Source: a virus (lineage: Duplodnaviria > Heunggongvirae > Uroviricota > Caudoviricetes). Taken from it: a stretch of DNA of 12,448 nucleotides. This document shows, piece after piece, positions 1-12,448 of the stretch. Position numbers and translations under genes: made by a program. The notes beneath the pieces were generated by a model that was given only the letters and a program-made list of their open reading frames with translations, was not told the origin of the DNA and searched no databases. The stretch lies in the IMG/VR virus record IMGVR_UViG_2648501165_000019; one strand, given 5' to 3'. Positions within the stretch are counted from its first letter, which is position 1; each line of letters begins with the position of its first letter.

Positions 1-1461
1 ATGAAAAAATTACTGCGTCTTTTTTTCCCGCTCTCACTGCGGGTACGTTTTCTGTTGGCAACGGCTGCGGTAGTACTGGTGCTTTCGCTTGCCTACGGAA
101 TGGTCGCGCTGATCGGTTATAGCGTCAGTTTCGATAAAACTACGTTTCGGCTGTTACGTGGCGAGAGCAATCTGTTCTATACCCTTGCGAAGTGGGAAAA
201 CAATAAGTTGCATGTCGAGTTACCCGAAAATATCGACAAGCAAAGCCCCACCATGACGCTAATTTATGATGAGAACGGGCAGCTTTTATGGGCGCAACGT
301 GACGTGCCCTGGCTGATGAAGATGATCCAGCCTGACTGGCTGAAATCGAATGGTTTTCATGAAATTGAAGCGGATGTTAACGATACCAGCCTCTTGCTGA
401 GTGGAGATCATTCGATACAGCAACAGTTGCAGGAAGTGCGGGAAGATGATGACGACGCGGAGATGACCCACTCGGTGGCAGTAAACGTCTACCCGGCAAC
501 ATCGCGGATGCCAAAATTAACCATTGTGGTGGTGGATACCATTCCGGTGGAGCTAAAAAGTTCCTATATGGTCTGGAGCTGGTTTATCTATGTGCTCTCA
601 GCCAATCTGCTGTTAGTGATCCCGCTGCTGTGGGTCGCCGCCTGGTGGAGTTTACGCCCCATCGAAGCCCTGGCAAAAGAAGTCCGCGAACTGGAAGAAC
701 ATAACCGCGAATTGCTCAATCCAGCCACAACGCGAGAACTGACCAGTCTGGTACGAAACCTGAACCGATTGTTAAAAAGTGAACGCGAACGTTACGACAA
801 ATACCGTACGACGCTCACCGACCTGACCCATAGTCTGAAAACGCCACTGGCGGTGCTGCAAAGTACGCTGCGTTCTCTGCGTAGTGAAAAGATGAGCGTC
901 AGTGATGCTGAGCCGGTAATGCTGGAGCAAATCAGCCGCATTTCACAGCAAATTGGCTACTACCTGCATCGTGCCAGTATGCGCGGCGGGACATTGCTCA
1001 GCCGCGAGCTGCATCCGGTCGCCCCACTGCTGGACAATCTCACCTCAGCGCTGAACAAAGTGTATCAACGCAAAGGGGTCAATATCTCTCTCGATATTTC
1101 GCCAGAGATCAGCTTTGTCGGTGAGCAGAACGATTTTGTCGAGGTGATGGGCAACGTGCTGGATAATGCCTGTAAATATTGCCTCGAGTTTGTCGAAATT
1201 TCTGCAAGGCAAACCGACGAGCATCTCTATATTGTGGTCGAGGATGATGGCCCCGGTATTCCATTAAGCAAGCGAGAGGTCATTTTCGACCGTGGTCAAC
1301 GGGTTGATACTTTACGCCCTGGGCAAGGTGTAGGGCTGGCGGTAGCCCGCGAAATCACCGAGCAATATGAGGGTAAAATCGTCGCCGGAGAGAGCATGCT
1401 GGGCGGTGCGCGGATGGAGGTGATTTTTGGTCGCCAGCATTCTGCGCCGAAAGATGAATAA
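1..1461 (+). CDS. phoQ: Sensor histidine kinase PhoQ (PhoP/PhoQ two-component system), complete 486 aa
   Basis: Full-length ORF with ATG at 1 and stop at 1461. Two N-terminal hydrophobic segments, periplasmic acidic patch (EDDDDAEM), HAMP-like region, His-containing dimerisation region ([12 protein letters not shown]) and C-terminal ATPase motifs ([15 protein letters not shown]). Matches E. coli PhoQ as I recall it. Confidence 0.95.
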
Positions 1462-2562: not shown

Positions 2563-3105
2563 TTACTCGCCTTTCTTCTGTAGCAACTTTTCCGGTACGT
2601 TTCCGGTTGTTTCTTTCAAGTAATCAGCCAGTATCTGTGGGAGGTTGTCGGCAACTCTGGCACTGGCATTACAGGCTTTAACCACTTCCCTTTTAAGCCT
2701 GTCCAGCATGGCGGGGGTAATCTGTGGGAAGCTCCTTTGCATAGTAAGCGGGAGGCTGTCCATGATTGATGAAATCTGACTCGCCAGCTTTGAAAGCGCG
2801 TACAGGCAAAACTCAGTATCAATCACGTCACCGCGATCGCGATCGTTTTTAAGTTCCTGCGCCTCTGCCTGTGCTGTCAGTAATCTGATCCTGACTCGTA
2901 AAAGTTCATCATCGTCAATCTCGCCTTTGTCGTTTATAAGCTGGCTAATTGCATTGTTAACCCTATTTTCTATCACGCTGGCAACATCATAAAACGCCTC
3001 ACGGCCTTTACGCTCAACGGGAGTTACTCCCCACTTGTCGAACGCTGTCGCACTTACACGGCAGCTTTTCGCCATGTTTTTTTTGTTCATCAGATGAGAT
3101 TTCAT
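2563..3105 (-). CDS. terS: Terminase small subunit, lambda Nu1-like (180 aa)
   Basis: Length and sequence parallel lambda Nu1 as recalled, for example RLLTAQAEAQELKNDRDRGDVIDTEFCLYALSKLASQISSIMDSLPLTMQRSFP versus lambda RLTRAQADAQELKNARDSAEVVETAFCTFVLSRIAGEIASILDGLPLSVQRRFP. Lies immediately downstream of cos copy B in the lambda cos-Nu1 arrangement. Start could be Met1 (3105) or Met6 (3090). Confidence 0.85.
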   Translation of the reverse strand: MKSHLMNKKNMAKSCRVSATAFDKWGVTPVERKGREAFYDVASVIENRVNNAISQLINDKGEIDDDELLRVRIRLLTAQAEAQELKNDRDRGDVIDTEFCLYALSKLASQISSIMDSLPLTMQRSFPQITPAMLDRLKREVVKACNASARVADNLPQILADYLKETTGNVPEKLLQKKGE

Positions 3106-3257
3106 TAATACACCAACTTAATTACTGCTTCAGGTTGGTGTATTGCTTGCATCTTTCCCTTTTCATTCATAAAGATAGATCAAACAACAAAACCACCACC
3201 CTGAAAAGGCTCATAAATAGCGAAAATCCGCGAGGTCGCCGCCCCGTAACGGGCCAT
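3106..3257 (-). other. cos site copy B (inverted relative to copy A): cosN plus a short, diverged cosB directly upstream of terS
   Basis: 3228-3257 is the exact reverse complement of 2358-2387 (30/30, ATGGCCCGTTACGGGGCGGCGACCTCGCGG); cosN on the minus strand is 3244-3233. Minus-strand continuation ATTTTCGCTATTTATGAG matches the lambda post-cosN sequence. Further toward terS the lambda-like R elements are replaced by GGTGGTGG (3200-3193), CACCAACC (3140-3133) and GTTGGTG (3117-3111). The position where cosQ would lie is occupied by N10 (3258-3267) and a terminator. Confidence 0.75.
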
Positions 3258-3267
3258 NNNNNNNNNN

Positions 3268-3290
3268 TAAAAAAGCCGGATTTCTCCGGC
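3268..3290 (-). terminator. Rho-independent terminator, copy 1 of a conserved hairpin family
   Basis: Minus strand reads GCCGGAGAAATCCGGC followed by TTTTTT: 6-bp GC-rich stem, GAAA loop, U-tract. Sits 7 nt after the stop of the 137-aa gene. Confidence 0.7.
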
Positions 3291-3296
3291 CTTGTC

Positions 3297-3710
3297 TCAG
3301 ATGGTTTTCAGTATGCGATCGATGTCGCCGTCATCGCCCTGGTTTCTGCCATCGTATGCCATGCCAGCTGATACGGCTTGCGGGCTGTGCATGTCCATAA
3401 AGTTTTCAAAGGCTGCGGTAAGTTCCGGCGCAACCTTCGGACGTTCCTGCTCTATGGTCATGCTAAGGATGCTTTTAGCCGTACCAACATCGATACAAGG
3501 CACGTTTGCCATTGCACGCAACAGCGGCTGATAGTCTTTATGCTCATGAAGCGCCATAATCGCATCAGCGCGCGGCTTGTCCTGCTCTTCCAGTTTGTTT
3601 AGTTGATATACGGCCTCATAGGTTGATAAACCTCTGTCAGCCATTGCCCGCGCTTCGACTTTAAATTTACTCGCCAGCGGTAGCGTCATGATGCTTTCAT
3701 TCGTTGCCAT
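3297..3710 (-). CDS. Hypothetical protein (137 aa) downstream of the decoration gene
   Basis: ATG at 3710-3708 with GGGGG Shine-Dalgarno-like run 4 nt upstream; acidic C-terminal region. No family recognised. Confidence 0.6.
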   Translation of the reverse strand: MATNESIMTLPLASKFKVEARAMADRGLSTYEAVYQLNKLEEQDKPRADAIMALHEHKDYQPLLRAMANVPCIDVGTAKSILSMTIEQERPKVAPELTAAFENFMDMHSPQAVSAGMAYDGRNQGDDGDIDRILKTI

Positions 3711-3722
3711 CGTTCCCCCTGC

Positions 3723-4058
3723 TTATCGGGCCAGCGGCTGAACGGATACGCCGGAACCCGCAAAGGCGGCGCATTTTTTCGCATCGGTGTCGACGCTCTC
3801 AGGCCAGTTAACGGCGGCAATATTGAATATCCCCGTCTTGTAACACTGTGCTGATTTCTGCTTTGACGTGTCCACAGGGTACGAGGTCAGATAAACAGCC
3901 TTGCCAGATTCCTGACCATCCCACGGCTTAAACTCGCCATTGTCTGCCAGCATCAGCGGGGTAAATTCCTGAATAACGCCAGCATCAGCGGCAAAATGTA
4001 CCAACGTCGTGGATACCTGCTGACTGCCTGCAAATAACTCAATGTATGGAGTGTCCAT
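3723..4058 (-). CDS. Head decoration protein, lambda gpD-like (111 aa)
   Basis: TPLMLADNGEFKPWDG, YKTGIFNIAAVNWPE and KKCAAFAGSGVSV parallel lambda gpD TPLMLDTSSRKLVAWDG, YKSGTFRYEDVLWPE and KKRTAFAGTAISIV (recalled). GGGGGG Shine-Dalgarno-like run upstream; start lies 13 nt after the capsid gene stop. Confidence 0.8.
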   Translation of the reverse strand: MDTPYIELFAGSQQVSTTLVHFAADAGVIQEFTPLMLADNGEFKPWDGQESGKAVYLTSYPVDTSKQKSAQCYKTGIFNIAAVNWPESVDTDAKKCAAFAGSGVSVQPLAR

Positions 4059-4070
4059 AGAATCCCCCCG

Positions 4071-5126
4071 TTAACCAATTTTGACGGTAACAAATTTGCG
4101 AATATCTGCCGGTACCGGCTGCGGTGCACTGTGTGTCTGCACGTACTCAATCGCCGGATCGCCGTCCTCAATCCAGTTTTTCGGGTAAAACATGTTTTGT
4201 GTTGCGCCCGTTCTTACCGCTTCCTGATCCATTATCGCACCATAGGCCACCAGCCCTTTATTGTTGGTGTTACCCAGGACCAGCAAATCAGGCTCAAGGA
4301 AATATTTTTCGGTACCATCGCTGTCAGTGTATTTGCCGGAATAGACGATAAGGGCCAGATCACCAAGATAGCCTTTAAAGCTCACCACTTCGCCCAGGTT
4401 TTTACAGGCCAGTTCGGCGGCGGATTCTGAACCACGGGAAAGATCGTACAGCTCACGGAATTTTTTAAAGCTGCGTAATGTGCGCCATACCTCAGCGCCC
4501 ATAATCATGACGTTTGCGGGGCAACCAGCCTGATCAGCATAAAGCTCGATGTCATAGATTGGGTCGTGCATGTCTTTATCCTGCTCGGACCATTTTTTAC
4601 CCTTGGCCTGCTCTATGATGCAGTTTTCCGGTATTTTCCAGTCGATTTCATAGCGTTCTATGCCTTCGCCCTCAATGATGTTTTTTCCGGTCGTTACCGC
4701 ATTCACCGCCAGCCATTCCACGCGTGCCTTAATGGCGTTTATCTGGCGGCGCATGTTGCCAGTAATCAGGCGCATACGGCGATAGGTAGGGTCGTTAAGC
4801 TGTGCCGGATCTTCTCCAGCCATGCGCATGATGGTTTTCGTTGGATCGATTTCGTGCTTTGGCTTCATGTAGCCAGGTTTGATTGTGCTGGTTTCGTACC
4901 CTTTATCGCGCTGAACCTGGCTACCCACCATAGGCGAACAAAACGCCGACATGGTGACTTCTTCAATGTCCAGGGTATCCAGCATGATGTTTTGCGTGCT
5001 GAATGTCGCCACGTTCGGGAAAAACAGCGTGGTAAACAGAGGGCTGAATTTAAAATCCGCAATATCCCCGCGATTCAGGTACATGAAAAGCTGGTTAGTG
5101 TTAAGTGCCGTTGCTTTGCCTGCCAT
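4071..5126 (-). CDS. Major capsid protein, lambda gpE-like (351 aa)
   Basis: Colinear similarity to lambda gpE over the whole length (recalled): PGYMKPKHEIDP vs PGYVKPKHEVNP; DPAQLNDPTYRRMR vs DPQNLADPAYRRRR; FKGYLGDLALIVYSGKYTD vs YKGMYGDVAIVVYSGQYVE; LLVLGNTNNKGLVAYGAIMD vs TMVLGNTQARGLRTYGCIQD; YPKNWIEDGDPAIEY vs YPKNWVTTGDPAREF. Confidence 0.9.
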   Translation of the reverse strand: MAGKATALNTNQLFMYLNRGDIADFKFSPLFTTLFFPNVATFSTQNIMLDTLDIEEVTMSAFCSPMVGSQVQRDKGYETSTIKPGYMKPKHEIDPTKTIMRMAGEDPAQLNDPTYRRMRLITGNMRRQINAIKARVEWLAVNAVTTGKNIIEGEGIERYEIDWKIPENCIIEQAKGKKWSEQDKDMHDPIYDIELYADQAGCPANVMIMGAEVWRTLRSFKKFRELYDLSRGSESAAELACKNLGEVVSFKGYLGDLALIVYSGKYTDSDGTEKYFLEPDLLVLGNTNNKGLVAYGAIMDQEAVRTGATQNMFYPKNWIEDGDPAIEYVQTHSAPQPVPADIRKFVTVKIG

Positions 5127-5365
5127 TATTCACCCCCATAATTTTTATGCATCCCAAGCGCCGCAAGTAAATAAGAGCGTACAAGTGAACCTATCGACGG
5201 CTCCGGCGTCATCAGCGGATCCAGTCCAGCCGCAACGCCAGCTTCATAGTTTTTTTTGTGGCGCTGCTTGAGCACCTCCACGATTTCGGGGCTTATGTAC
5301 ACCGAAACACCGCCTTTTTTCTCTTCAGCCATAGTAAGAAATTCCTCTTCGACTAAAAAAATCAT
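5126..5365 (-). CDS. Small hypothetical protein translationally coupled to the capsid gene (79 aa, or 68 aa from an alternative ATG at 5332)
   Basis: Its stop TAA overlaps the capsid ATG (TAATG). Neither candidate start has a strong ribosome-binding site, so the start is uncertain. No family recognised. Confidence 0.45.
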   Translation of the reverse strand: MIFLVEEEFLTMAEEKKGGVSVYISPEIVEVLKQRHKKNYEAGVAAGLDPLMTPEPSIGSLVRSYLLAALGMHKNYGGE

Positions 5366-5934: not shown

Positions 5935-6207
5935 TTAGCTGTCCTGGTAATTGCGCCATATTTCATCACCAGCACCATCTATACCCATTTCGGCATAAGT
6001 GCGATCGACTGCCTTTTTCAGGTCTCCGAAATTATCCGGCGGCTCCGGTGCCCTCTGTGCCTTCCTTGAACATTCCAGCCGTCGCATCGTGATGTGATGC
6101 CGTTCCTTGTCTGTCTCCACCAGCTGCATGACTTCACCCCATCGCGCCGCCGCCCTCCGGTAAAAGCCTTTCGCCTCCAGTTCCTCCGCTATGCGGTCAT
6201 GTACCAT
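5935..6207 (-). CDS. Small putative transcriptional activator, PerC-like (90 aa from ATG at 6207)
   Basis: The longer frame to 6327 starts with GTG and overlaps the SSB gene. The ATG at 6207 follows the SSB stop with a GGGGGTG ribosome-binding site. Motif AEELEAKGFYRRAAARWGEVM resembles the signature I recall for PerC/Pch regulators; this is from memory and of moderate strength. Confidence 0.45.
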   Translation of the reverse strand: MVHDRIAEELEAKGFYRRAAARWGEVMQLVETDKERHHITMRRLECSRKAQRAPEPPDNFGDLKKAVDRTYAEMGIDGAGDEIWRNYQDS

Positions 6208-6885: not shown

Positions 6886-7078
6886 CCTCTCACTTTTTCG
6901 CCTCACTTTTTCAAGCGTCTCACTTCGTCGCAGTTGGGATTTTCGGTTTTTCTATGTGTGTGTTTCATAAGTATTTTTTTACCCCTCACTTTTGAGGATG
7001 TATACAGGTCGAAAAGTGAGGGAGAGCGGGCTAATTTTGGCCCTCTTTCTATCCCCCTCGCTTTTGCTCCTCACTTTT
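6886..7078 (-). repeat. Iteron array, putative replication origin, immediately 3' of the helicase gene
   Basis: Seven copies of a CCTCACTTTT-type decamer: 6889-6897, 6901-6910, 6918-6927, 6984-6993, 7056-7065, 7069-7078, plus one inverted copy at 7011-7024. AT-rich spacer around 6961-6981. Confidence 0.6.
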
Positions 7079-8477
7079 ATAGCGGCGCTACATCATCCCC
7101 ATCGATACGAATAACCCCATCTTTTTCCAGCTTGTACAGCCAGCGCCGGAAGTTTTTCATTTCATACCCCAGCTTTTTCATGTCATCACGTAACAGCGGG
7201 ATCGTGCACTTGTCGCCGTTCTGTGTGCGTGAACGGATGCCCCCCCATAGCGCGGTATGGTTTTTCGTCTTGTTCCCTGCCTCCTCGATGCGCTCCAGTT
7301 CAACAGGAGGGCGCGGATCATCCACCACCACCAGCGACGTGATTAATTCACCGTCAGCGTCGGTAAAAAGCTCCACCACGCGTAAGTCATATGCGGCTTC
7401 TTTGAGTTCCTCCGCGTCCTTCATTTTGGTGCATGAGATAACCAGCGCTTCGCTTCCTGCGTCCTCCCTGCGTATCCGGTATTCAGCATCCAGCGAAGCA
7501 CGAAATGCACTGGAACCGCGCGCGCCTTTCGTCTCATCCTTGCCGGAATGGTGAACCACCAGCACCGTGGCCCCTGTGCGTCGTTTCAGTTCGTCACAAC
7601 CACGGATAAACGCCCCCATATCACGGGAATCATTTTCATCATTCCCACCAAAGCAACGCGCCAGCGTATCCAGAATAATCATGCGTACAGGTTTACCCGT
7701 TTCCCGCTCCACCTGACGGGCAGCGATAACCATTTCATCAACATCAAGCGGGGCAGCCGGAAAGATGGGGCGGTTTACCAGATACAGATTTTTCACCTGC
7801 TCATCGTGCACAACCTCCCAGGCTTTTACACGACGCGGAACACCTATACCGCCTTCACCAACCACATAGAGAACCGCACCATGTGCAACCCTGCGGCCTC
7901 CCCACTGGCGACCAGTGGCAACATGGCACGCCCACGATCCGGCAAGGAATGATTTATAGGACCCGCTAGCCCCGTATATGCTGCATAGCGATACCGCCGG
8001 AATAATCCCCTTAACCACGTAATCCAGTTGCGTGTCGTATCCGGTAGATCCAACGCTCATCGGTAGCGTGGTTTTTCGCTGGTGGTTTTTTTCTTCCGCC
8101 GGCTCTTTCCCGCGCACCCGTTCCAGGTATTCGCGCCAGTTCTCCCGCATATGGCTGTGCATCCCTTCGGGGTAATAATTCGCATCAGTTACACCCGCCG
8201 CCGCCAGCTTGTGCGCAATGGCATTAATATTTGATGGCCTGATGTGGCCTGCCTTGTACAGCCGGACACAATAGCGCCCCTCGTCGATGATTCTCAGGTC
8301 TGCCAGTTCATCCAGTTGATCATCAGCCAGCACAACGGGAGGCACATTATCGCCAGCCAGTCGCCCGTCCTGTTCCTGCCACTGTTTCGCATGTGCCCAG
8401 GCATCACTACCCGCAAAAATAATGACTTCGGTCATCTTGTCGTAAGGCTGTTTTTTTAAGTTCGGTGCGCTTTTCAT
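7077..8477 (-). CDS. Replication protein with RecA-like (RepA/DnaB-type) ATPase domain, putative helicase/initiator (466 aa)
   Basis: Walker A GASGSYKS (aa 169-176), Walker B-like MIILDTLARCFGGNDEND, and VLVVHHSGK motif typical of RepA-like replicative ATPases. N-terminal region of about 160 aa unassigned. AGGGG ribosome-binding site 6 nt upstream; ATGA overlap with the upstream gene. Confidence 0.7.
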   Translation of the reverse strand: MKSAPNLKKQPYDKMTEVIIFAGSDAWAHAKQWQEQDGRLAGDNVPPVVLADDQLDELADLRIIDEGRYCVRLYKAGHIRPSNINAIAHKLAAAGVTDANYYPEGMHSHMRENWREYLERVRGKEPAEEKNHQRKTTLPMSVGSTGYDTQLDYVVKGIIPAVSLCSIYGASGSYKSFLAGSWACHVATGRQWGGRRVAHGAVLYVVGEGGIGVPRRVKAWEVVHDEQVKNLYLVNRPIFPAAPLDVDEMVIAARQVERETGKPVRMIILDTLARCFGGNDENDSRDMGAFIRGCDELKRRTGATVLVVHHSGKDETKGARGSSAFRASLDAEYRIRREDAGSEALVISCTKMKDAEELKEAAYDLRVVELFTDADGELITSLVVVDDPRPPVELERIEEAGNKTKNHTALWGGIRSRTQNGDKCTIPLLRDDMKKLGYEMKNFRRWLYKLEKDGVIRIDGDDVAPL

Positions 8478-8773
8478 TTCTTGCCCCTGAATCCGTTAAC
8501 CATGGTTTTCAGCTTCTGGATGTTTGCCCGTGCCCTGGCGTTGCTGGTGGGCACGTTATGCGGCGCGGTCTGTACCAGAGAAAAATCACGCCGGAACTGA
8601 TAAACAGGCATCACGCAATCATATTCGTAACCTTCACGGCGGTAGGTTACGCGCCGTTCTTCCACGCCCTTAATCATTACCGTGCCGCCGTACTGGTCGC
8701 GGTAAATATCACCGCGCGTAAATTTAGGGTGAGTGTTGCCACTGGCAGTTAAGCCAGAATATTTAAGTTTCAT
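8474..8773 (-). CDS. Hypothetical protein (99 aa)
   Basis: ATG with GGAGAA ribosome-binding site 8 nt upstream; translationally coupled to the helicase gene. No family recognised. Confidence 0.5.
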   Translation of the reverse strand: MKLKYSGLTASGNTHPKFTRGDIYRDQYGGTVMIKGVEERRVTYRREGYEYDCVMPVYQFRRDFSLVQTAPHNVPTSNARARANIQKLKTMVNGFRGKK

Positions 8774-8778
8774 TATTT

Positions 8779-9012
8779 TTATTCTCCGGTGTGCTGTTCT
8801 TTATATCTGTCGTGCAATAGATCTATTTCTTGCAGTTCCATTATTACAGGCTCAAGAAGCGTTATTAATGCCGTGGCAATTCTTGATTTTTGTTTGTCGC
8901 GTTCATTGTCGCCAAGTGTTTCAAGCCATATGCGCAATATTTCCATCATGTTTTCACTGTGAGAAAGTGCAAGAAATGCGCGGTCTATTGTTTGGTGGTA
9001 AATATCACGCAT
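8779..9012 (-). CDS. Hypothetical protein (77 aa)
   Basis: ATG at 9012 with GAGGA ribosome-binding site; overlaps the upstream gene by 8 nt. No family recognised. Confidence 0.5.
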   Translation of the reverse strand: MRDIYHQTIDRAFLALSHSENMMEILRIWLETLGDNERDKQKSRIATALITLLEPVIMELQEIDLLHDRYKEQHTGE

Positions 9013-9469
9013 GGCTTACATCCTCAGGAAATTTTCTTCTATAACGCGCCTCTGCCACATATTCCGCATAATCGGCGGCGATATTCAGTACATCAAGCCC
9101 CGTTGATTTATATTCTCTCGTGGAAAGTAAGAAAAAAGCCGCTCTAATAAGTTCTGGCATTGACGAAAGCGCATCAGCCGCATCATCAGGAACGCCGGAA
9201 AATTCCTGTTTCAGGGAATTAAAACGATCATCACGCATAACCCCCCCATTTTCACAATCAGCAATCAGGATAGCTTTGGCCTCATTCAGCGCCGTATCAG
9301 CACTAAATTGCATGACAGCCAGTGAGTGAGGAACGAAAGCACCGGCATATTCTGTTTCGCTGGTGGCGTGCTTATGTGCCCTGTCCGCGATAACAGAAAT
9401 ATCAATCAGCGCGTGCATCAGCGTTTTGATGGCTTCGGCGGCTGCGTCCGGTGTGGTTTTATTGTGCAT
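9005..9469 (-). CDS. Hypothetical protein (154 aa)
   Basis: ATG at 9469 with AGGGGA ribosome-binding site 6 nt upstream; overlapping gene chain. No family recognised. Confidence 0.55.
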   Translation of the reverse strand: MHNKTTPDAAAEAIKTLMHALIDISVIADRAHKHATSETEYAGAFVPHSLAVMQFSADTALNEAKAILIADCENGGVMRDDRFNSLKQEFSGVPDDAADALSSMPELIRAAFFLLSTREYKSTGLDVLNIAADYAEYVAEARYRRKFPEDVSHA

Positions 9470-9671
9470 AAAGCATCCCCTGAATATTCGTGTTAATCAT
9501 TCCGGCACGTTTTGTGATTTCCTGTAATGATTCCCTTGTGGCGACAATTGCTTCATCTGGTAAGTGGTAATTACACACCACGCGACCTTTATCCACATTG
9601 ACCAGTAGCTGCCCTGTGAATTTCTCACGAAACTGAATGCGGTTAAGGTCAGTAAGTGACAGATTAATCAT
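9459..9671 (-). CDS. Hypothetical protein (70 aa from ATG at 9671)
   Basis: Strong ribosome-binding site AGGAGGT 5 nt upstream of the internal ATG; the longer frame to 9713 lacks one. Overlaps the upstream gene by 8 nt. Confidence 0.5.
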   Translation of the reverse strand: MINLSLTDLNRIQFREKFTGQLLVNVDKGRVVCNYHLPDEAIVATRESLQEITKRAGMINTNIQGMLYAQ

Positions 9672-9861
9672 GGCGCACCTCCTGACGAATACGGGCGGCA
9701 AATACAGCAACACAACCGGACGGGCAACGGTTACGCGCTTCGCGTTCCGTCCAGGCGGTTACGTGGATGATTTGAGATTCTCCGGCACTCAGTGCCAGAA
9801 AACGCCACACAAAGGCCGTTTGTGTGTGTACAAGGTGTGGTATATGATTTACGGCAACCAT
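9664..9861 (-). CDS. Hypothetical small protein (65 aa), first gene of the leftward early operon
   Basis: ATG at 9861 preceded by AGGAG with a 5-nt spacer. It is the 3' part of a long spurious frame (9664-10608) in the ORF track. Contains a CPSGC motif. No family recognised. Confidence 0.45.
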   Translation of the reverse strand: MVAVNHIPHLVHTQTAFVWRFLALSAGESQIIHVTAWTEREARNRCPSGCVAVFAARIRQEVRHD

Positions 9862-9923
9862 AACGGCTCCTAGTTTACGTTGTTGGTTAGACGCCCCGTA
9901 TGTGTTCCCAGCACTGCGGGGCG

Positions 9924-9994
9924 TTGATTTTTGTGTAATGGCAAGTACAATGGTAATTACCATGTAGGTATAGTAATAAAGGGTAATTACCATG
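9924..9994 (+). promoter_or_regulatory. Divergent control region: sigma70-like promoter for the RHH gene with two palindromic operators
   Basis: -35 TTGATT (9924-9929), 16-bp spacer, -10 TACAAT (9946-9951). Operator 1 ATGGTAATTACCAT (9950-9963, perfect 14-bp palindrome) overlaps the -10 and start site. Operator 2 GGTAATTACC (9982-9991) overlaps the RHH start codon. Centre-to-centre spacing is 30 bp. Confidence 0.6.
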
Positions 9995-10165
9995 TCAACA
10001 CCATTAGAAAAACGTTCGCCTCCATACCAAATGCGATTACCGGAAGACTTCAGAGCGCAGCTAGAAGAAGCAGCTAAGGCCGATGGCGACACATCTTTAG
10101 CCACTTGGATTAAACGCGTTCTCCGCAAAGAATTACAGCAACGCGGCATAGAACCCAAAGGATAA
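9992..10165 (+). CDS. Ribbon-helix-helix (Arc/Mnt-like) DNA-binding regulator, 57 aa; not in the supplied ORF track because it is under 60 aa
   Basis: Translation MSTPLEKRSPPYQMRLPEDFRAQLEEAAKADGDTSLATWIKRVLRKELQQRGIEPKG. The segment YQMRLPEDFRAQLEEAAKADGDTSLATWIKRVL fits the Arc-type beta-strand/helix/helix pattern. Divergent from the minus-strand operon and overlapped by the palindromic operators. Confidence 0.65.
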   Translation: MSTPLEKRSPPYQMRLPEDFRAQLEEAAKADGDTSLATWIKRVLRKELQQRGIEPKG

Positions 10166-10207
10166 AAACTATCAGCGCCGTGGTGTGAGGTATTACGGCG
10201 CATTGCT

Positions 10208-10396
10208 ATGCAGGACAACACAATGACCGATAAAGAATTGACCAAAACATTATCACCGGCACGGAAAAGACGGCGCAGAAAGATAGAGCATGAATCAGAA
10301 AGATTCGCGCCATGTGCTTTTGCCCTTGAGCAATTCCTTAAAGAGTACAGGGAAACGCGCCCATTGCAGGTATGGCAACGAACTGAACCAGACTGA
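10208..10396 (+). CDS. Possible small basic protein (62 aa) downstream of the RHH gene; weak call
   Basis: ORF lies between the RHH gene and the plus-strand terminator at 10490-10520. No convincing ribosome-binding site; Arg/Lys-rich centre. Confidence 0.25.
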   Translation: MQDNTMTDKELTKTLSPARKRRRRKIEHESERFAPCAFALEQFLKEYRETRPLQVWQRTEPD

Positions 10397-10489
10397 TAGC
10401 ATTGCCCACCAGCCTGATAGCGGCTATCATCCCCGTGCTTATGTTTGGGATCATATACACATAAGGCGCAGCGGGTTATCTGTTCAGAA

Positions 10490-10520
10490 AGGCGGCTCCA
10501 TTTCGGGGCCGCTTTTTTTA
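10490..10520 (+). terminator. Rho-independent terminator ending the rightward RHH transcript
   Basis: GCGGCTCC, ATTTC loop, GGGGCCGC (8-bp stem with one G-U pair) followed by TTTTTTT. Confidence 0.6.
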
Positions 10521-10665
10521 TGCCTGAAAAACCCCAATTTTGTGGTTTTCCAGTCTCACCAGGGCGAACGAATCCCCGCCCACGTTCTGGCGTATATTCA
10601 ATCTTCATGGTTATAGCTCTGTGTTCAGATGATTGATGTGTGGCGGCTGTGTGCCGCCAGCGTGA

Positions 10666-10854
10666 TTAATGAACTGCCTTGCAGCTATCCTTCCAGGCCA
10701 GAACCTCGGATAAAGACCAGCCAACGGAACGACCGCCAAGTTTACGACGTGATGGGAATTGTCCGGCCTTTTCCAGGCGGTAGCGACACGTACGGCTAAG
10801 GCCGGTTAGTTTTTCGCATTCTTTTTCACGTATAAACCGATCAGTGCTTAACAC
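10666..10854 (-). CDS. alpA: AlpA-family transcriptional regulator / putative excision activator (62 aa)
   Basis: LTGLSRTCRYRLEKAGQFPSRRKLGGRSVGWSLSEVLAW matches the AlpA helix-turn-helix signature as recalled. The start codon is GTG (10854-10852) with an AAGGGGG ribosome-binding site 5 nt upstream. Same orientation as int, as in P4-like and PICI-type elements. Confidence 0.8.
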   Translation of the reverse strand: MLSTDRFIREKECEKLTGLSRTCRYRLEKAGQFPSRRKLGGRSVGWSLSEVLAWKDSCKAVH

Positions 10855-11218: not shown

Positions 11219-12448
11219 TTATTTTCTTCTGGCTACTGGTAGCGTGGTTACGTTTTCATGTGTTCCCGCCAGTATCCCTAACCGCTCCGTCCACATATCC
11301 AGCGCATTGCGTTTCGCATCCAGATAACGGGAATGATTATAAACTCGCTGCATTCCTGGCATCTGGTGGCCTGTAAGCTGCTCCACGACATGCGGATCAA
11401 CGCCTAAATCGTTCAGCATGGTTGTAAAGGTGCGCCGGATGTCATGCAGTGACCAGTGAGGGTGATTAAGCCTCCTGTGCGCTAATCTTCCATACTGCGA
11501 TACGCTGGCCTCCTGTTTCACTTCCCCCAGCAATAAGCCCGTGTGCCTGTTCTGCTCCACCAGCTGCGTGATGAACGGCAGTATTGCTTCCGGTATAGGC
11601 CGGAATATGGCTACCTTCGTTTTGCTGTGCTCCTTCGGAACGGTCCAGAGCATTTCGGTAAAATCCCACTCGCTGATCTCCGATAACCTCAGTTCTACCG
11701 TCCGGCATCCGAACACAATCAGGAGGCGGATTAACGCGATGTAGTAGGGGGAGAATATTTTTTTGTCCAGTGCCTGCAATAATTCGCCCAGTTCTTTGGT
11801 GCTTAAGACACGCTCGCTTATATCCGGTTTTTTCCCAACGTCCGCCACACTCATATCATCAAGAACGTTGCTGATTGCATAGCGCCGCCTCCGGCAGAAC
11901 TTAAGCGCCTGTTTGCACGTCTGTAGCAAGAATCCGGCAGTAACAGGCGTTCGCTTTGCCACCTGGTCAAAACAGGCCAGCCAGTGCCGTAGCTCGCATT
12001 TATCCAGCGGCATAGCACCAATGTGCTGTATTACGTGATTATTAAGGCGCTTTTTCAGGGCGGCATAATCCACGCGGTTTTCCTTTGCGTACGACTCAAG
12101 CCAGTAGGTGAGCGCATCGCCAACCGTTACCGGCTTTAACGCTTCCTGTACGGTGTAATTAAGCTCATGACGTGGATTTTTCCCCTCTGCCAGCCATGCG
12201 CGACACTGGGCGGCTTTTTCCCTGGCTGATTTCAGGCTCAGATCAGGATAATTTCCCAGCTTAATGCGTTCCGGTGGTGCCCCCCTTCCCGTTCCGGCCC
12301 TGTAAGTGAAATACCAGGTTAAAAGGCCACTGGTTGAATGCCTGACGCTCAGGTTTCCACCGTCATTAAGAAAGGCTGTTTTTTGGGCGGGTGTGCCGTT
12401 GATTTTCCTCAGCTGTGTATCGCTCAGTTTGTTAAGTGCTCTGCTCAT
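11219..12448 (-). CDS. int: Tyrosine recombinase, P4-type integrase (409 aa); start codon is the last three bases of the window
   Basis: C-terminal catalytic region with HDIRRTFTT, LTGH and RVYNHSRY (candidate catalytic Tyr). N-terminal region with the DGG...W.F.YR pattern of P4-type arm-binding domains. Confidence 0.9.
   Translation of the reverse strand: MSRALNKLSDTQLRKINGTPAQKTAFLNDGGNLSVRHSTSGLLTWYFTYRAGTGRGAPPERIKLGNYPDLSLKSAREKAAQCRAWLAEGKNPRHELNYTVQEALKPVTVGDALTYWLESYAKENRVDYAALKKRLNNHVIQHIGAMPLDKCELRHWLACFDQVAKRTPVTAGFLLQTCKQALKFCRRRRYAISNVLDDMSVADVGKKPDISERVLSTKELGELLQALDKKIFSPYYIALIRLLIVFGCRTVELRLSEISEWDFTEMLWTVPKEHSKTKVAIFRPIPEAILPFITQLVEQNRHTGLLLGEVKQEASVSQYGRLAHRRLNHPHWSLHDIRRTFTTMLNDLGVDPHVVEQLTGHQMPGMQRVYNHSRYLDAKRNALDMWTERLGILAGTHENVTTLPVARRK

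Follow-up and report, generated by a model that had tools for sequence, protein, structure and literature searches.

The DNA examined here is a 12,448-nucleotide (nt) stretch from IMG/VR virus record IMGVR_UViG_2648501165_000019, called the window below, and our subject is a chain of five short open reading frames (ORF1 to ORF5) lying on its minus strand between a divergent regulatory switch and a replication gene, as the original prediction had placed it. All coordinates are those of the whole window. On sequence grounds the element carrying the chain is almost certainly a phage-inducible chromosomal island (PICI) of the EcCICFT073 type, inserted between roxA and phoQ in Escherichia coli O157:H7. 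The region is 100% identical to the phoQ–roxA interval of O157:H7 chromosomes, and 1,463 of 5,426 complete E. coli genomes contain a match of some kind to it.

The chain consists of ORF1 (9861..9664, 65 amino acids (aa)), ORF2 (9671..9459, 70 aa), ORF3 (9469..9005, 154 aa), ORF4 (9012..8779, 77 aa) and ORF5 (8773..8474, 99 aa). Each begins with ATG behind a purine-rich Shine–Dalgarno (SD) sequence, namely TAGGAG, AGGAGG, GGGGA, GAGGA and GGAGAA in chain order; a GTG at 9713, taken as the ORF2 start by a mechanical ORF listing, is unnecessary, the ATG being sufficient. ORF1 and ORF2 overlap by 8 nt, ORF2 and ORF3 by 11 nt, and ORF3 and ORF4 by 8 nt, while ORF5 meets the replication gene in a 4-nt ATGA overlap. 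The overlaps of 4–11 nt claimed for the whole chain are thus present at four of the five junctions, and a 5-nt spacer separates ORF4 from ORF5. In its other parts the description survived: five ORFs of 65–154 aa with good ribosome-binding sites lie closely packed in the same orientation and make up a single early operon, whose translation is probably coupled. Exactly the same five coding sequences are called by the Prokaryotic Genome Annotation Pipeline (PGAP) in a 100%-identical O157:H7 genome, and the same junction geometry recurs in 12 islands. All five ORFs match PHROG families (E-values of 1e-23 to 3e-92). Compared with diverged islands, the uncorrected ratio of non-synonymous to synonymous change (pN/pS) is below 1 for ORF1 (0–0.56), ORF3, ORF4 and ORF5, and 0.53 for ORF2 from a single informative pair; values of 0.2–0.6 point to ordinary purifying selection, with the signal of an arms race absent.

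The comparison of chains covered 12 islands, 13 additional loci and the genome of P4 (islands and loci are given by our L numbers where one must be singled out). A search of a contig collection with ORF5 returned two loci only, and complete E. coli genomes served to sample diversity. Clustering sorts the chain proteins from the 12 islands into seven families, and their order is the same in all 12: an Icd-like gene (ORF1 in the window), one to four variable cassettes, the ORF4 family (family B), an RgdR gene (ORF5 in the window) and the replication gene. Modules of ORF3 occupy the slot between the fixed genes in eight of the 12 islands and ORF2 in four, and two other families (E and G) complete the set of cassettes. 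The replication gene itself varies, being a RepA helicase, a primase, or a DUF927 or DUF5906 gene, and the identical RgdR proteins WP_000770153 and WP_000770163 adjoin different replication genes. Because identical RgdR proteins are paired with different replication genes and ORF4 alleles, the chain genes must recombine as independent cassettes. The chain therefore has fixed ends and a variable middle slot, filled here by ORF2 and ORF3. Lack of conservation across related islands, which the original prediction had named as evidence that would count against it, thus applies to part of the chain only: ORF2 and the ORF3 modules are missing from some islands of this set, and universal in it are ORF1, the ORF4 family and ORF5.

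Families of the first and last genes

ORF1 matches the NCBIfam model NF033153 ("host cell division inhibitor Icd-like protein") with 64.8 bits (cutoff 25; 5.2e-18), and the match spans model positions 1–48, the whole of the 48-position model. The family takes its name from Icd of phage P1. An ORF labelled "cI" in the P4 record also matches NF033153, at 7.8e-21 and over its last 50 residues. ORF1 and P4 Kil, both of 65 aa, align colinearly in hhalign (E 0.0016); their direct pairwise match is weak, and the family link came through NF033153, which both match. By these profile matches ORF1 is an Icd-like protein of the same family as P4 Kil, for which a killing function has been reported (PMC10111431). 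By analogy with Kil and with P1 Icd, the ORF1 product would probably harm cell division or viability. The Icd-like profile had no match among PDB sequences. A terminator-like hairpin with a T-rich tail (9806–9826, minus strand), covering ORF1 codons 12–20, was considered and set aside: it is not kept in other Icd-like alleles, and its T-run follows from the conserved W-R-F codons.

Among the phage records searched, a single one contained an ORF1 homolog. This record (L016; LR881103.1, "Escherichia phage vB_KppS-Ant", 16.5 kb) encodes an integrase, a 324-aa ORF with an Icd-like domain at its end, two small ORFs, a primase, an HK97 capsid protein, a portal and a terminase; by its gene content it resembles a capsid-forming satellite that was submitted under the name of a phage.

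At the other end of the chain, ORF5 matches Pfam DUF4222 (PF13973) with 85.7 bits (cutoff 27; 1.6e-24) over residues 16–68. It is 81% identical to ECs1581/RgdR and 93% identical to C1493 of CFT073, and it is basic (isoelectric point (pI) 10.2), with an RGD triplet at residues 20–22. G21 and D22 are invariant among relatives and R20 varies; in the allele of strain ED1a, an R20C change abolishes RgdR activity. An AlphaFold2 model gives the core as a small five-stranded beta-barrel with a basic C-terminal helix. From these matches ORF5 can be assigned to the RgdR family of DUF4222 proteins. The original prediction had found none of the five genes recognisable; that verdict stands for ORF2 to ORF4 and falls for ORF1 and ORF5.

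The RgdR gene is always 300 nt long, comes last in the chain in all 12 islands and keeps its ATGA overlap whatever the type of the replication gene, in line with the published statement that "RgdR is encoded by all analysed E. coli PICIs" (PMC6092414). DUF4222 proteins also occur in 111 lambdoid phage records, including phages of Klebsiella, Salmonella and Shigella. In one lambdoid phage (L021) a 59-aa DUF4222 ORF and the start of replication gene O have 11 nt in common, and in several other lambdoid records the DUF4222 match runs into a gene annotated as replication protein O or primosomal protein. Given this universal coupling to an initiator gene and the presence of DUF4222 in lambdoid phages, the native role of RgdR is likely to lie in the replication or expression module of the mobile element. 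We regard the linkage of DUF4222 to initiator genes, common to satellites and lambdoid phages, as a modest addition to what is known, and it makes a native mobile-element role of RgdR directly testable.

Two further observations concern this family. In L021 (3980–4159, against 3804–4139 and 4149–5132) and in L022 (2322–2677) the DUF4222 ORF lies out of frame in the 3' half of a YmfM-like ORF; ymfM of prophage e14 is reported to cause SOS-inducible filamentation (bioRxiv 10.1101/2020.11.19.390815). Co-variation of RgdR with the replication protein or with ORF4 was also considered and rejected, identical RgdR proteins being found beside different replication genes and beside ORF4 alleles 94% and 38% identical.

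Upstream frame, divergent switch and leader

The frame that ends with ORF1 has 333 open codons and reaches back to the stop codon of alpA, which encodes an AlpA-family regulator (10666..10854, minus strand; PF05930 at 5.4e-17). The upstream, eta-like extension of the frame (9862..10665, minus strand) runs for 268 codons without a stop. Its first ATG lies at 10608, so that in-frame ATGs stand 314 and 65 codons before the ORF1 stop and the longer ORF would encode 314 aa. Over the 804 nt that separate alpA from ORF1, stop codons number 0 in the ORF1 frame, against 22 and 12 in the other frames; in the 441 nt that are free of plus-strand genes the figures are 0 against 7 and 13. The alpA gene itself shares the ORF1 frame, and a lone TAA (10668–10666) interrupts the run from 9664 to 10854. 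A long open frame is likewise found in L004, L006, L012, L013 and L015, with sequences that differ from that of the window. In the identical strain, PGAP tags part of the 314-aa ORF as an "incomplete Icd-like pseudogene".

The nesting that characterises eta and kil is therefore found here: a long ORF that reaches the end of alpA has as its 3' part an in-frame, Icd-like ORF of about 65 aa. The corresponding P4 frame is open for 217 codons, with ATGs 199, 198, 197 and 65 codons from the stop. These ATG positions agree with the sizes of Eta and Kil reportedly given by Forti et al. in 1999. The eta/kil logic of P4 has been summarised and such genes have been placed in PICIs (PMC10111431); what is new here, in a modest way, is the explicit assignment of ORF1 to the Kil family in EcCICFT073-type islands, and the single-stop frame from alpA to ORF1, which crosses the repressor gene in antisense and keeps its wobble positions in register.

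Two plus-strand ORFs lie opposite this frame. The first (9992..10165, 57 aa) is a candidate ribbon-helix-helix repressor of the Arc-like YlcI/YnfO family. It matches phrog_228 at 1.5e-6, has weak matches below cutoff to NF041551 (0.0014; 18.7 bits, cutoff 30) and Pfam Arc (0.038; 14.3 bits, cutoff 20.4), and has relatives annotated YlcI/YnfO. The second (10208..10396, 62 aa) is basic, matches phrog_21027 at 3e-16 and is 97% conserved in several islands. Neither carries an annotation from PGAP in the identical RefSeq genome. Both run antisense within the long minus-strand frame, their third codon positions coinciding with those of the frame, and both strands of this overlap could be coding. The repressor candidate differs from its counterparts in L002 and L015 by 24 synonymous and one non-synonymous change.

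The control region next to the repressor candidate contains two perfect GGTAATTACC palindromes (9952–9961 and 9982–9991), 30 nt apart, which are candidate operators. Allowing one mismatch, three matches were found against 0.27 expected by chance. The pair stops one base before the ATG of the repressor candidate, and a pair with the same spacing stands beside the same repressor gene in L002 (4723–4762) and L015 (4860–4899); repressor gene and palindromes travel as a module. Islands with other repressor alleles have different repeated sites at the same positions, a pattern which suggests that these repressor-site modules are exchangeable immunity modules; L002 and L015 have two of them in tandem. 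Interleaved with both palindromes is a predicted sigma-70-like promoter that faces the chain (TTGACA-17 nt-TACTAT; 9970..9998, minus strand), a match to consensus only, at 10 of 12 positions.

Between this promoter and ORF1 lies a conserved leader hairpin (9891..9924, minus strand), upstream of the ORF1 SD and followed by a conserved CUUCUAACC motif. Among nine sequences the hairpin has eight pairs, two of them with compensatory changes, and the motif is kept in all nine, the base after it being variable; hairpin and motif occur together in 13 of 15 islands. No partner complementary to the motif was found within the window. When the entire window was scanned against Rfam, at E up to 1, no family matched, C4 and isrK included, and the leader hairpin was left uncovered.

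Reading of the operon and its alternatives

Taken together, these features lead us to a reading that we consider reasonably probable: the five ORFs make up the promoter-proximal part of the island's main operon, which would work as follows. In the resting island the divergent ribbon-helix-helix repressor would sit on both GGTAATTACC palindromes and hold the chain promoter down. A helper phage would switch alpA on, and transcripts from there would continue across the eta-like frame, antisense to the repressor gene, and enter the chain. Ribosomes would then pass from gene to gene across the 4–11-nt overlaps, so that coupled translation could be continuous from the alpA stop to the replication gene; with the mRNA kept covered in this way, Rho would be unable to terminate transcription before that gene is reached. 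Translation-dependent escape from Rho termination has been reported for P4 kil/eta (PMC10111431). Within this scheme ORF1 would serve mainly as a translated leader, and ORF5 would be a small basic DNA-binding regulator, probably tied to the replication or expression module. The anti-termination step taken by itself is held more tentatively: perhaps it operates here, at somewhat less than even odds in our judgement.

Several observations weigh against this reading. Anti-termination is taken from P4 by analogy. In four of the 13 islands checked (L002, L003, L005 and L010) the frame is broken or shifted, leaving 88–98 open codons, which argues that the long frame is dispensable, and its upstream part translates into a Cys/Ser/Arg-rich sequence unlike a folded protein. 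The long frame and the plus-strand genes have their wobble positions in common; because third codon positions coincide, neither the 24:1 ratio nor pN/pS can assign selection to the repressor gene or to the antisense frame. The immunity RNA parts of P4 (CI and seqA; Rfam families C4 and isrK) are absent here, so that the resemblance to eta/kil stops short of an immunity RNA and regulation must differ from that of P4. Finally, deletion of rgdR has a phenotype in uninduced cells, and rgdR may therefore also be expressed independently of the operon.

A promoter-like sequence (TTAATA-17 nt-TG-AATAAT; 8840–8868, minus strand), a consensus match only, lies inside ORF4, about 70 nt upstream of the RgdR-like gene. 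Such a site, if used, could explain the phenotype of the rgdR deletion in uninduced cells.

The genes between the two ends bear on a different view of the chain. ORF2 is a variable cassette (family F) and matches phrog_340 at 1e-23. ORF3 matches phrog_2512 at 2.9e-92 and is acidic (pI 5.0) and all-helical; two half-length families lie within it, phrog_5146 at the N-terminus and phrog_24341 at the C-terminus. A profile search of 1.84 billion representatives with ORF3 gave only 61 clusters, mostly proteins of about 75 aa matching one half, and in L002, L003 and CFT073 the ORF3 modules are split into two overlapping genes. By these matches ORF3 is a fusion of two modules of about 75 aa, residues 1–77 and M78–154. 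Its AlphaFold2 model was poor (pLDDT confidence score 54), too poor for a fold search, and its longer relatives have no Pfam domains that would point to a function. ORF4, also acidic (pI 5.1), matches phrog_2196 at 1.2e-42; its family is always second to last, directly before the RgdR-like gene. All of its 525 relatives are named hypothetical or prophage protein, nearly all come from E. coli, and it is 26% identical to Sakai ECs1580. ORF2 to ORF4 matched nothing in Pfam or NCBIfam, and ORF3, the only one of the three searched against PDB sequences, matched none there.

The original prediction, which noted that in characterised satellites this position holds helper-sensing, derepression or interference functions, had seen in the five genes the best candidates for a new helper-recognition or anti-phage mechanism. 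With that view narrowed to the variable middle, ORF2, the ORF3 modules and families E and G would be small effectors acting on helper or host proteins, whether by sensing, derepression, interference, or anti-phage or anti-defence activity. The cassettes do come and go freely, split or fused, across the 12 islands; they are confined to satellites of Enterobacteriaceae, ORF2 and ORF3 having no homologs in 50,697 phage records and ORF3 so few clusters; ORF3 and ORF4 are small and acidic; and P4 epsilon, which acts in helper derepression, holds an analogous slot with 8-nt overlaps. Yet at E up to 0.01 none of the defence models of PADLOC-DB 2.0 was matched by the five ORFs, the replication gene or four other small ORFs, which, with the blank results in Pfam and NCBIfam and, for ORF3, among PDB sequences, counts against effectors. 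So does the outcome of BLASTP and hhalign comparisons, which gave no significant alignment of ORF3 with P4 orf151 or of the RgdR family with P4 cnr, epsilon not being compared directly. P4 epsilon, orf151 and cnr match no NCBIfam family either, as is the case for ORF2 to ORF4. The pN/pS values show no sign of an arms race, and in Gram-negative PICIs it is the helper that activates alpA and not the reverse (PMC6092414, PMC11773190). We consider the effector view unlikely.

The characterised interference of EcCICFT073 maps to its packaging module (Rpp), which further counts against effectors in the chain. Variability and satellite restriction are compatible with the helper-directed idea and are no test of it; a helper-directed role of ORF2 to ORF4 is neither supported nor excluded. 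A wider conjecture would make the slot between the Icd-like gene and the ORF4–RgdR pair an exchange site for modules of about 60–80 aa (ORF2, the ORF3 halves, families E and G) that inhibit or sense specific helper or host proteins, as P4 epsilon does, and so set helper range, while the alpA–ORF1 frame would act as a two-strand device in which read-through silences the repressor and shields the operon from Rho. As a joint proposal this is quite improbable.

The published work on RgdR suggests another view, in which the RgdR-like and Icd-like genes would be host-directed "moron" functions, a virulence and motility regulator and a division inhibitor, outside the life cycle of the satellite. [quoted passage not shown] Its relative C1493 likewise activates LEE1 and type III secretion and represses motility, the latter in uropathogenic E. 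coli, and deletion of rgdR or of the whole island reduces type III secretion, adherence and shedding from sheep. ORF5 may share LEE1 activation and motility repression with these tested relatives. RgdR and PerC have been listed as accessory virulence genes (PMC6092414), and the very name of the Icd-like family refers to an inhibitor of host cell division. Against this, a gene of the RgdR family is present in every island examined, those of commensal and LEE-negative strains included, where its position never changes and it is coupled to the replication gene; in Klebsiella, Salmonella and Shigella lambdoid phages DUF4222 is found at the corresponding spot, upstream of gene O; and RgdR binds DNA without sequence specificity and with no preference for LEE1 (PMC3378721). 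A fixed place in an operon together with coupling is also atypical of morons, for which a promoter and a terminator of their own are the norm. We think this view improbable; since a native role in the mobile element is the one we infer, the LEE and motility effects of RgdR are probably cross-talk.

Finally, that the five ORFs are chance frames or decayed remnants of a cryptic prophage can be dismissed as exceedingly improbable: islands of the OI-51/Sp7 type were first described as highly degraded cryptic prophages and most chain genes are annotated "hypothetical protein", but the family matches reach 3e-92, pN/pS stays below 1, starts, SD sequences and overlaps are kept in 12 islands, the region recurs in many complete E. 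coli genomes, and sister islands are inducible and mobilised.

The operon reading, with ORF1 as leader and ORF5 as regulator, changes little for the field at large: the island type and the first and last gene families have been described, and the five genes were already annotated by NCBI. Publications already cover the island family, control by AlpA, RgdR, the Icd-like family and the eta/kil logic of P4 as found in satellites. To describe the chain as a fixed frame around a slot is a modest novelty, and it singles out ORF2, ORF3 and ORF4 for tests of helper-specific function. For many O157:H7 strains, the analysis means that an RgdR-family regulator of type III secretion rides on an EcCICFT073-like satellite and not on the capsid-forming island where RgdR was defined.

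The island and its relatives

The rest of the window supports the claim that the element is a phage satellite. The window begins with phoQ (1..1461, its left end) and ends with a P4-type tyrosine integrase gene (11219..12448, minus strand; PF13356 and PF00589) at the roxA-proximal end of the island; the integrase is 97–99.5% identical to those of EcCICFT073 and Sakai Sp7, and roxA (ycfD) follows it in the matching O157:H7 genome. In minus-strand order come int, alpA, the five ORFs, the helicase, a 93-aa ORF, the gene for single-stranded DNA-binding protein (SSB) and a PerC-family regulator, then two small ORFs, a lambda E-like capsid gene, a D-like decoration gene, an Nu3-like gene and an Nu1-like small terminase gene. 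The replication gene (7077..8477, minus strand, 466 aa) encodes a RepA-family helicase with an AAA_25 domain (PF13481 at 2.4e-43; phrog_2850), which PGAP names "helicase RepA family protein". The PerC-family gene (5935–6207, minus strand) lies between SSB and the packaging genes. Its product shares 90% identity with Sakai Sp7 PchE, and LEE1 can be either activated or repressed by PerC homologs that PICIs carry (PMC11773190). The lambda-type packaging module (2563–5126, minus strand) includes E-like, D-like and Nu3-like proteins 96–98% identical to those of EcCICFT073, and for the 180-aa Nu1-like small terminase no counterpart exists in CFT073, where a 144-aa ORF holds that position. No tail or lysis families were found among the window proteins by Pfam, PHROG and annotation comparison. 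This is the layout of a Gram-negative PICI, with int, a same-strand alpA, a replication module and a short packaging module, in the gene order of EcCICFT073 and at the roxA–phoQ attachment site used by both EcCICFT073 and Sakai Sp7/EcCIEDL933.

AlpA is the helper-activated master activator of Gram-negative PICIs (PMC6092414, PMC11773190), and for the sister islands EcCICFT073 and EcCIEDL933 induction and high-frequency mobilisation have been shown experimentally. Helper induction through alpA and transfer in helper particles, known for these sisters, may by kinship apply here too. The possibility that the island is OI-51/Sp7 itself was ruled out: in Sakai the same site is occupied by Sp7, a capsid-forming sister island, whose ECs1581 has 81% identity to ORF5. 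Portal and large terminase genes are absent from the window island, which is therefore, unlike Sakai Sp7, not capsid-forming.

The chain can also be compared with phage P1. The immI operon of P1 (c4 RNA, icd, ant) was reportedly described by Riedel et al. in 1993 as a coupled chain headed by an Icd-family ORF whose translation is needed downstream. That operon differs from the present one in its C4 RNA, of which none was detected here, and in that the downstream genes here are not antirepressors.

The left operon of P4 comprises vis (orf88), eta/kil, epsilon, orf151, cnr (orf106) and alpha (Forti et al. 1999, as summarised in PMC10111431). It shares with the window an AlpA-like gene, a long frame ending in a 65-codon Icd-like ORF, small ORFs with 8-nt overlaps and a replication gene. 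It differs in the type of its replication protein and in having a CI RNA/seqA-type element, which Rfam did not detect here, while a divergent protein repressor, the apparent controller of the present island, is lacking in P4.

Relatives are also found at the same chromosomal site. RgdR/ECs1581 of O-island 51/Sp7/EcCIEDL933 (Flockhart et al. 2012, PMC3378721) is, like ORF5, a 99-aa DUF4222 protein with RGD at residues 20–22; the core residues 20–68 of the two are one residue apart and their N- and C-terminal residues differ. Its gene sits before the replication gene and overlaps it, as ORF5 does. Sakai Sp7 (EcCIEDL933) has the same site and chain layout, with a HK97-type head module, a DUF927 primase and other middle genes; it is a capsid-forming island of HK97 type, whereas the window island carries lambda-type capsid genes.

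The prototype is EcCICFT073 (Fillol-Salom et al. 2018, PMC6092414), which occupies the same roxA/ycfD–phoQ site and has the same order of int, alpA, divergent YlcI/YnfO, Icd-like gene, small overlapping ORFs, DUF4222, replication gene, SSB, PerC, E-like and D-like genes. Identity reaches 96–98% in the capsid module, 97% in the integrase and 93% in the RgdR-like protein. Besides the small terminase there are these differences: EcCICFT073 has a primase where the window has a RepA-family helicase (62% identity over 125 aa only), its Icd-like allele is 46% identical, ORF2 is absent there, and ORF3 is represented by two separate genes. These comparisons show the island in the window to be a mosaic, sister to both EcCICFT073 and Sakai Sp7.

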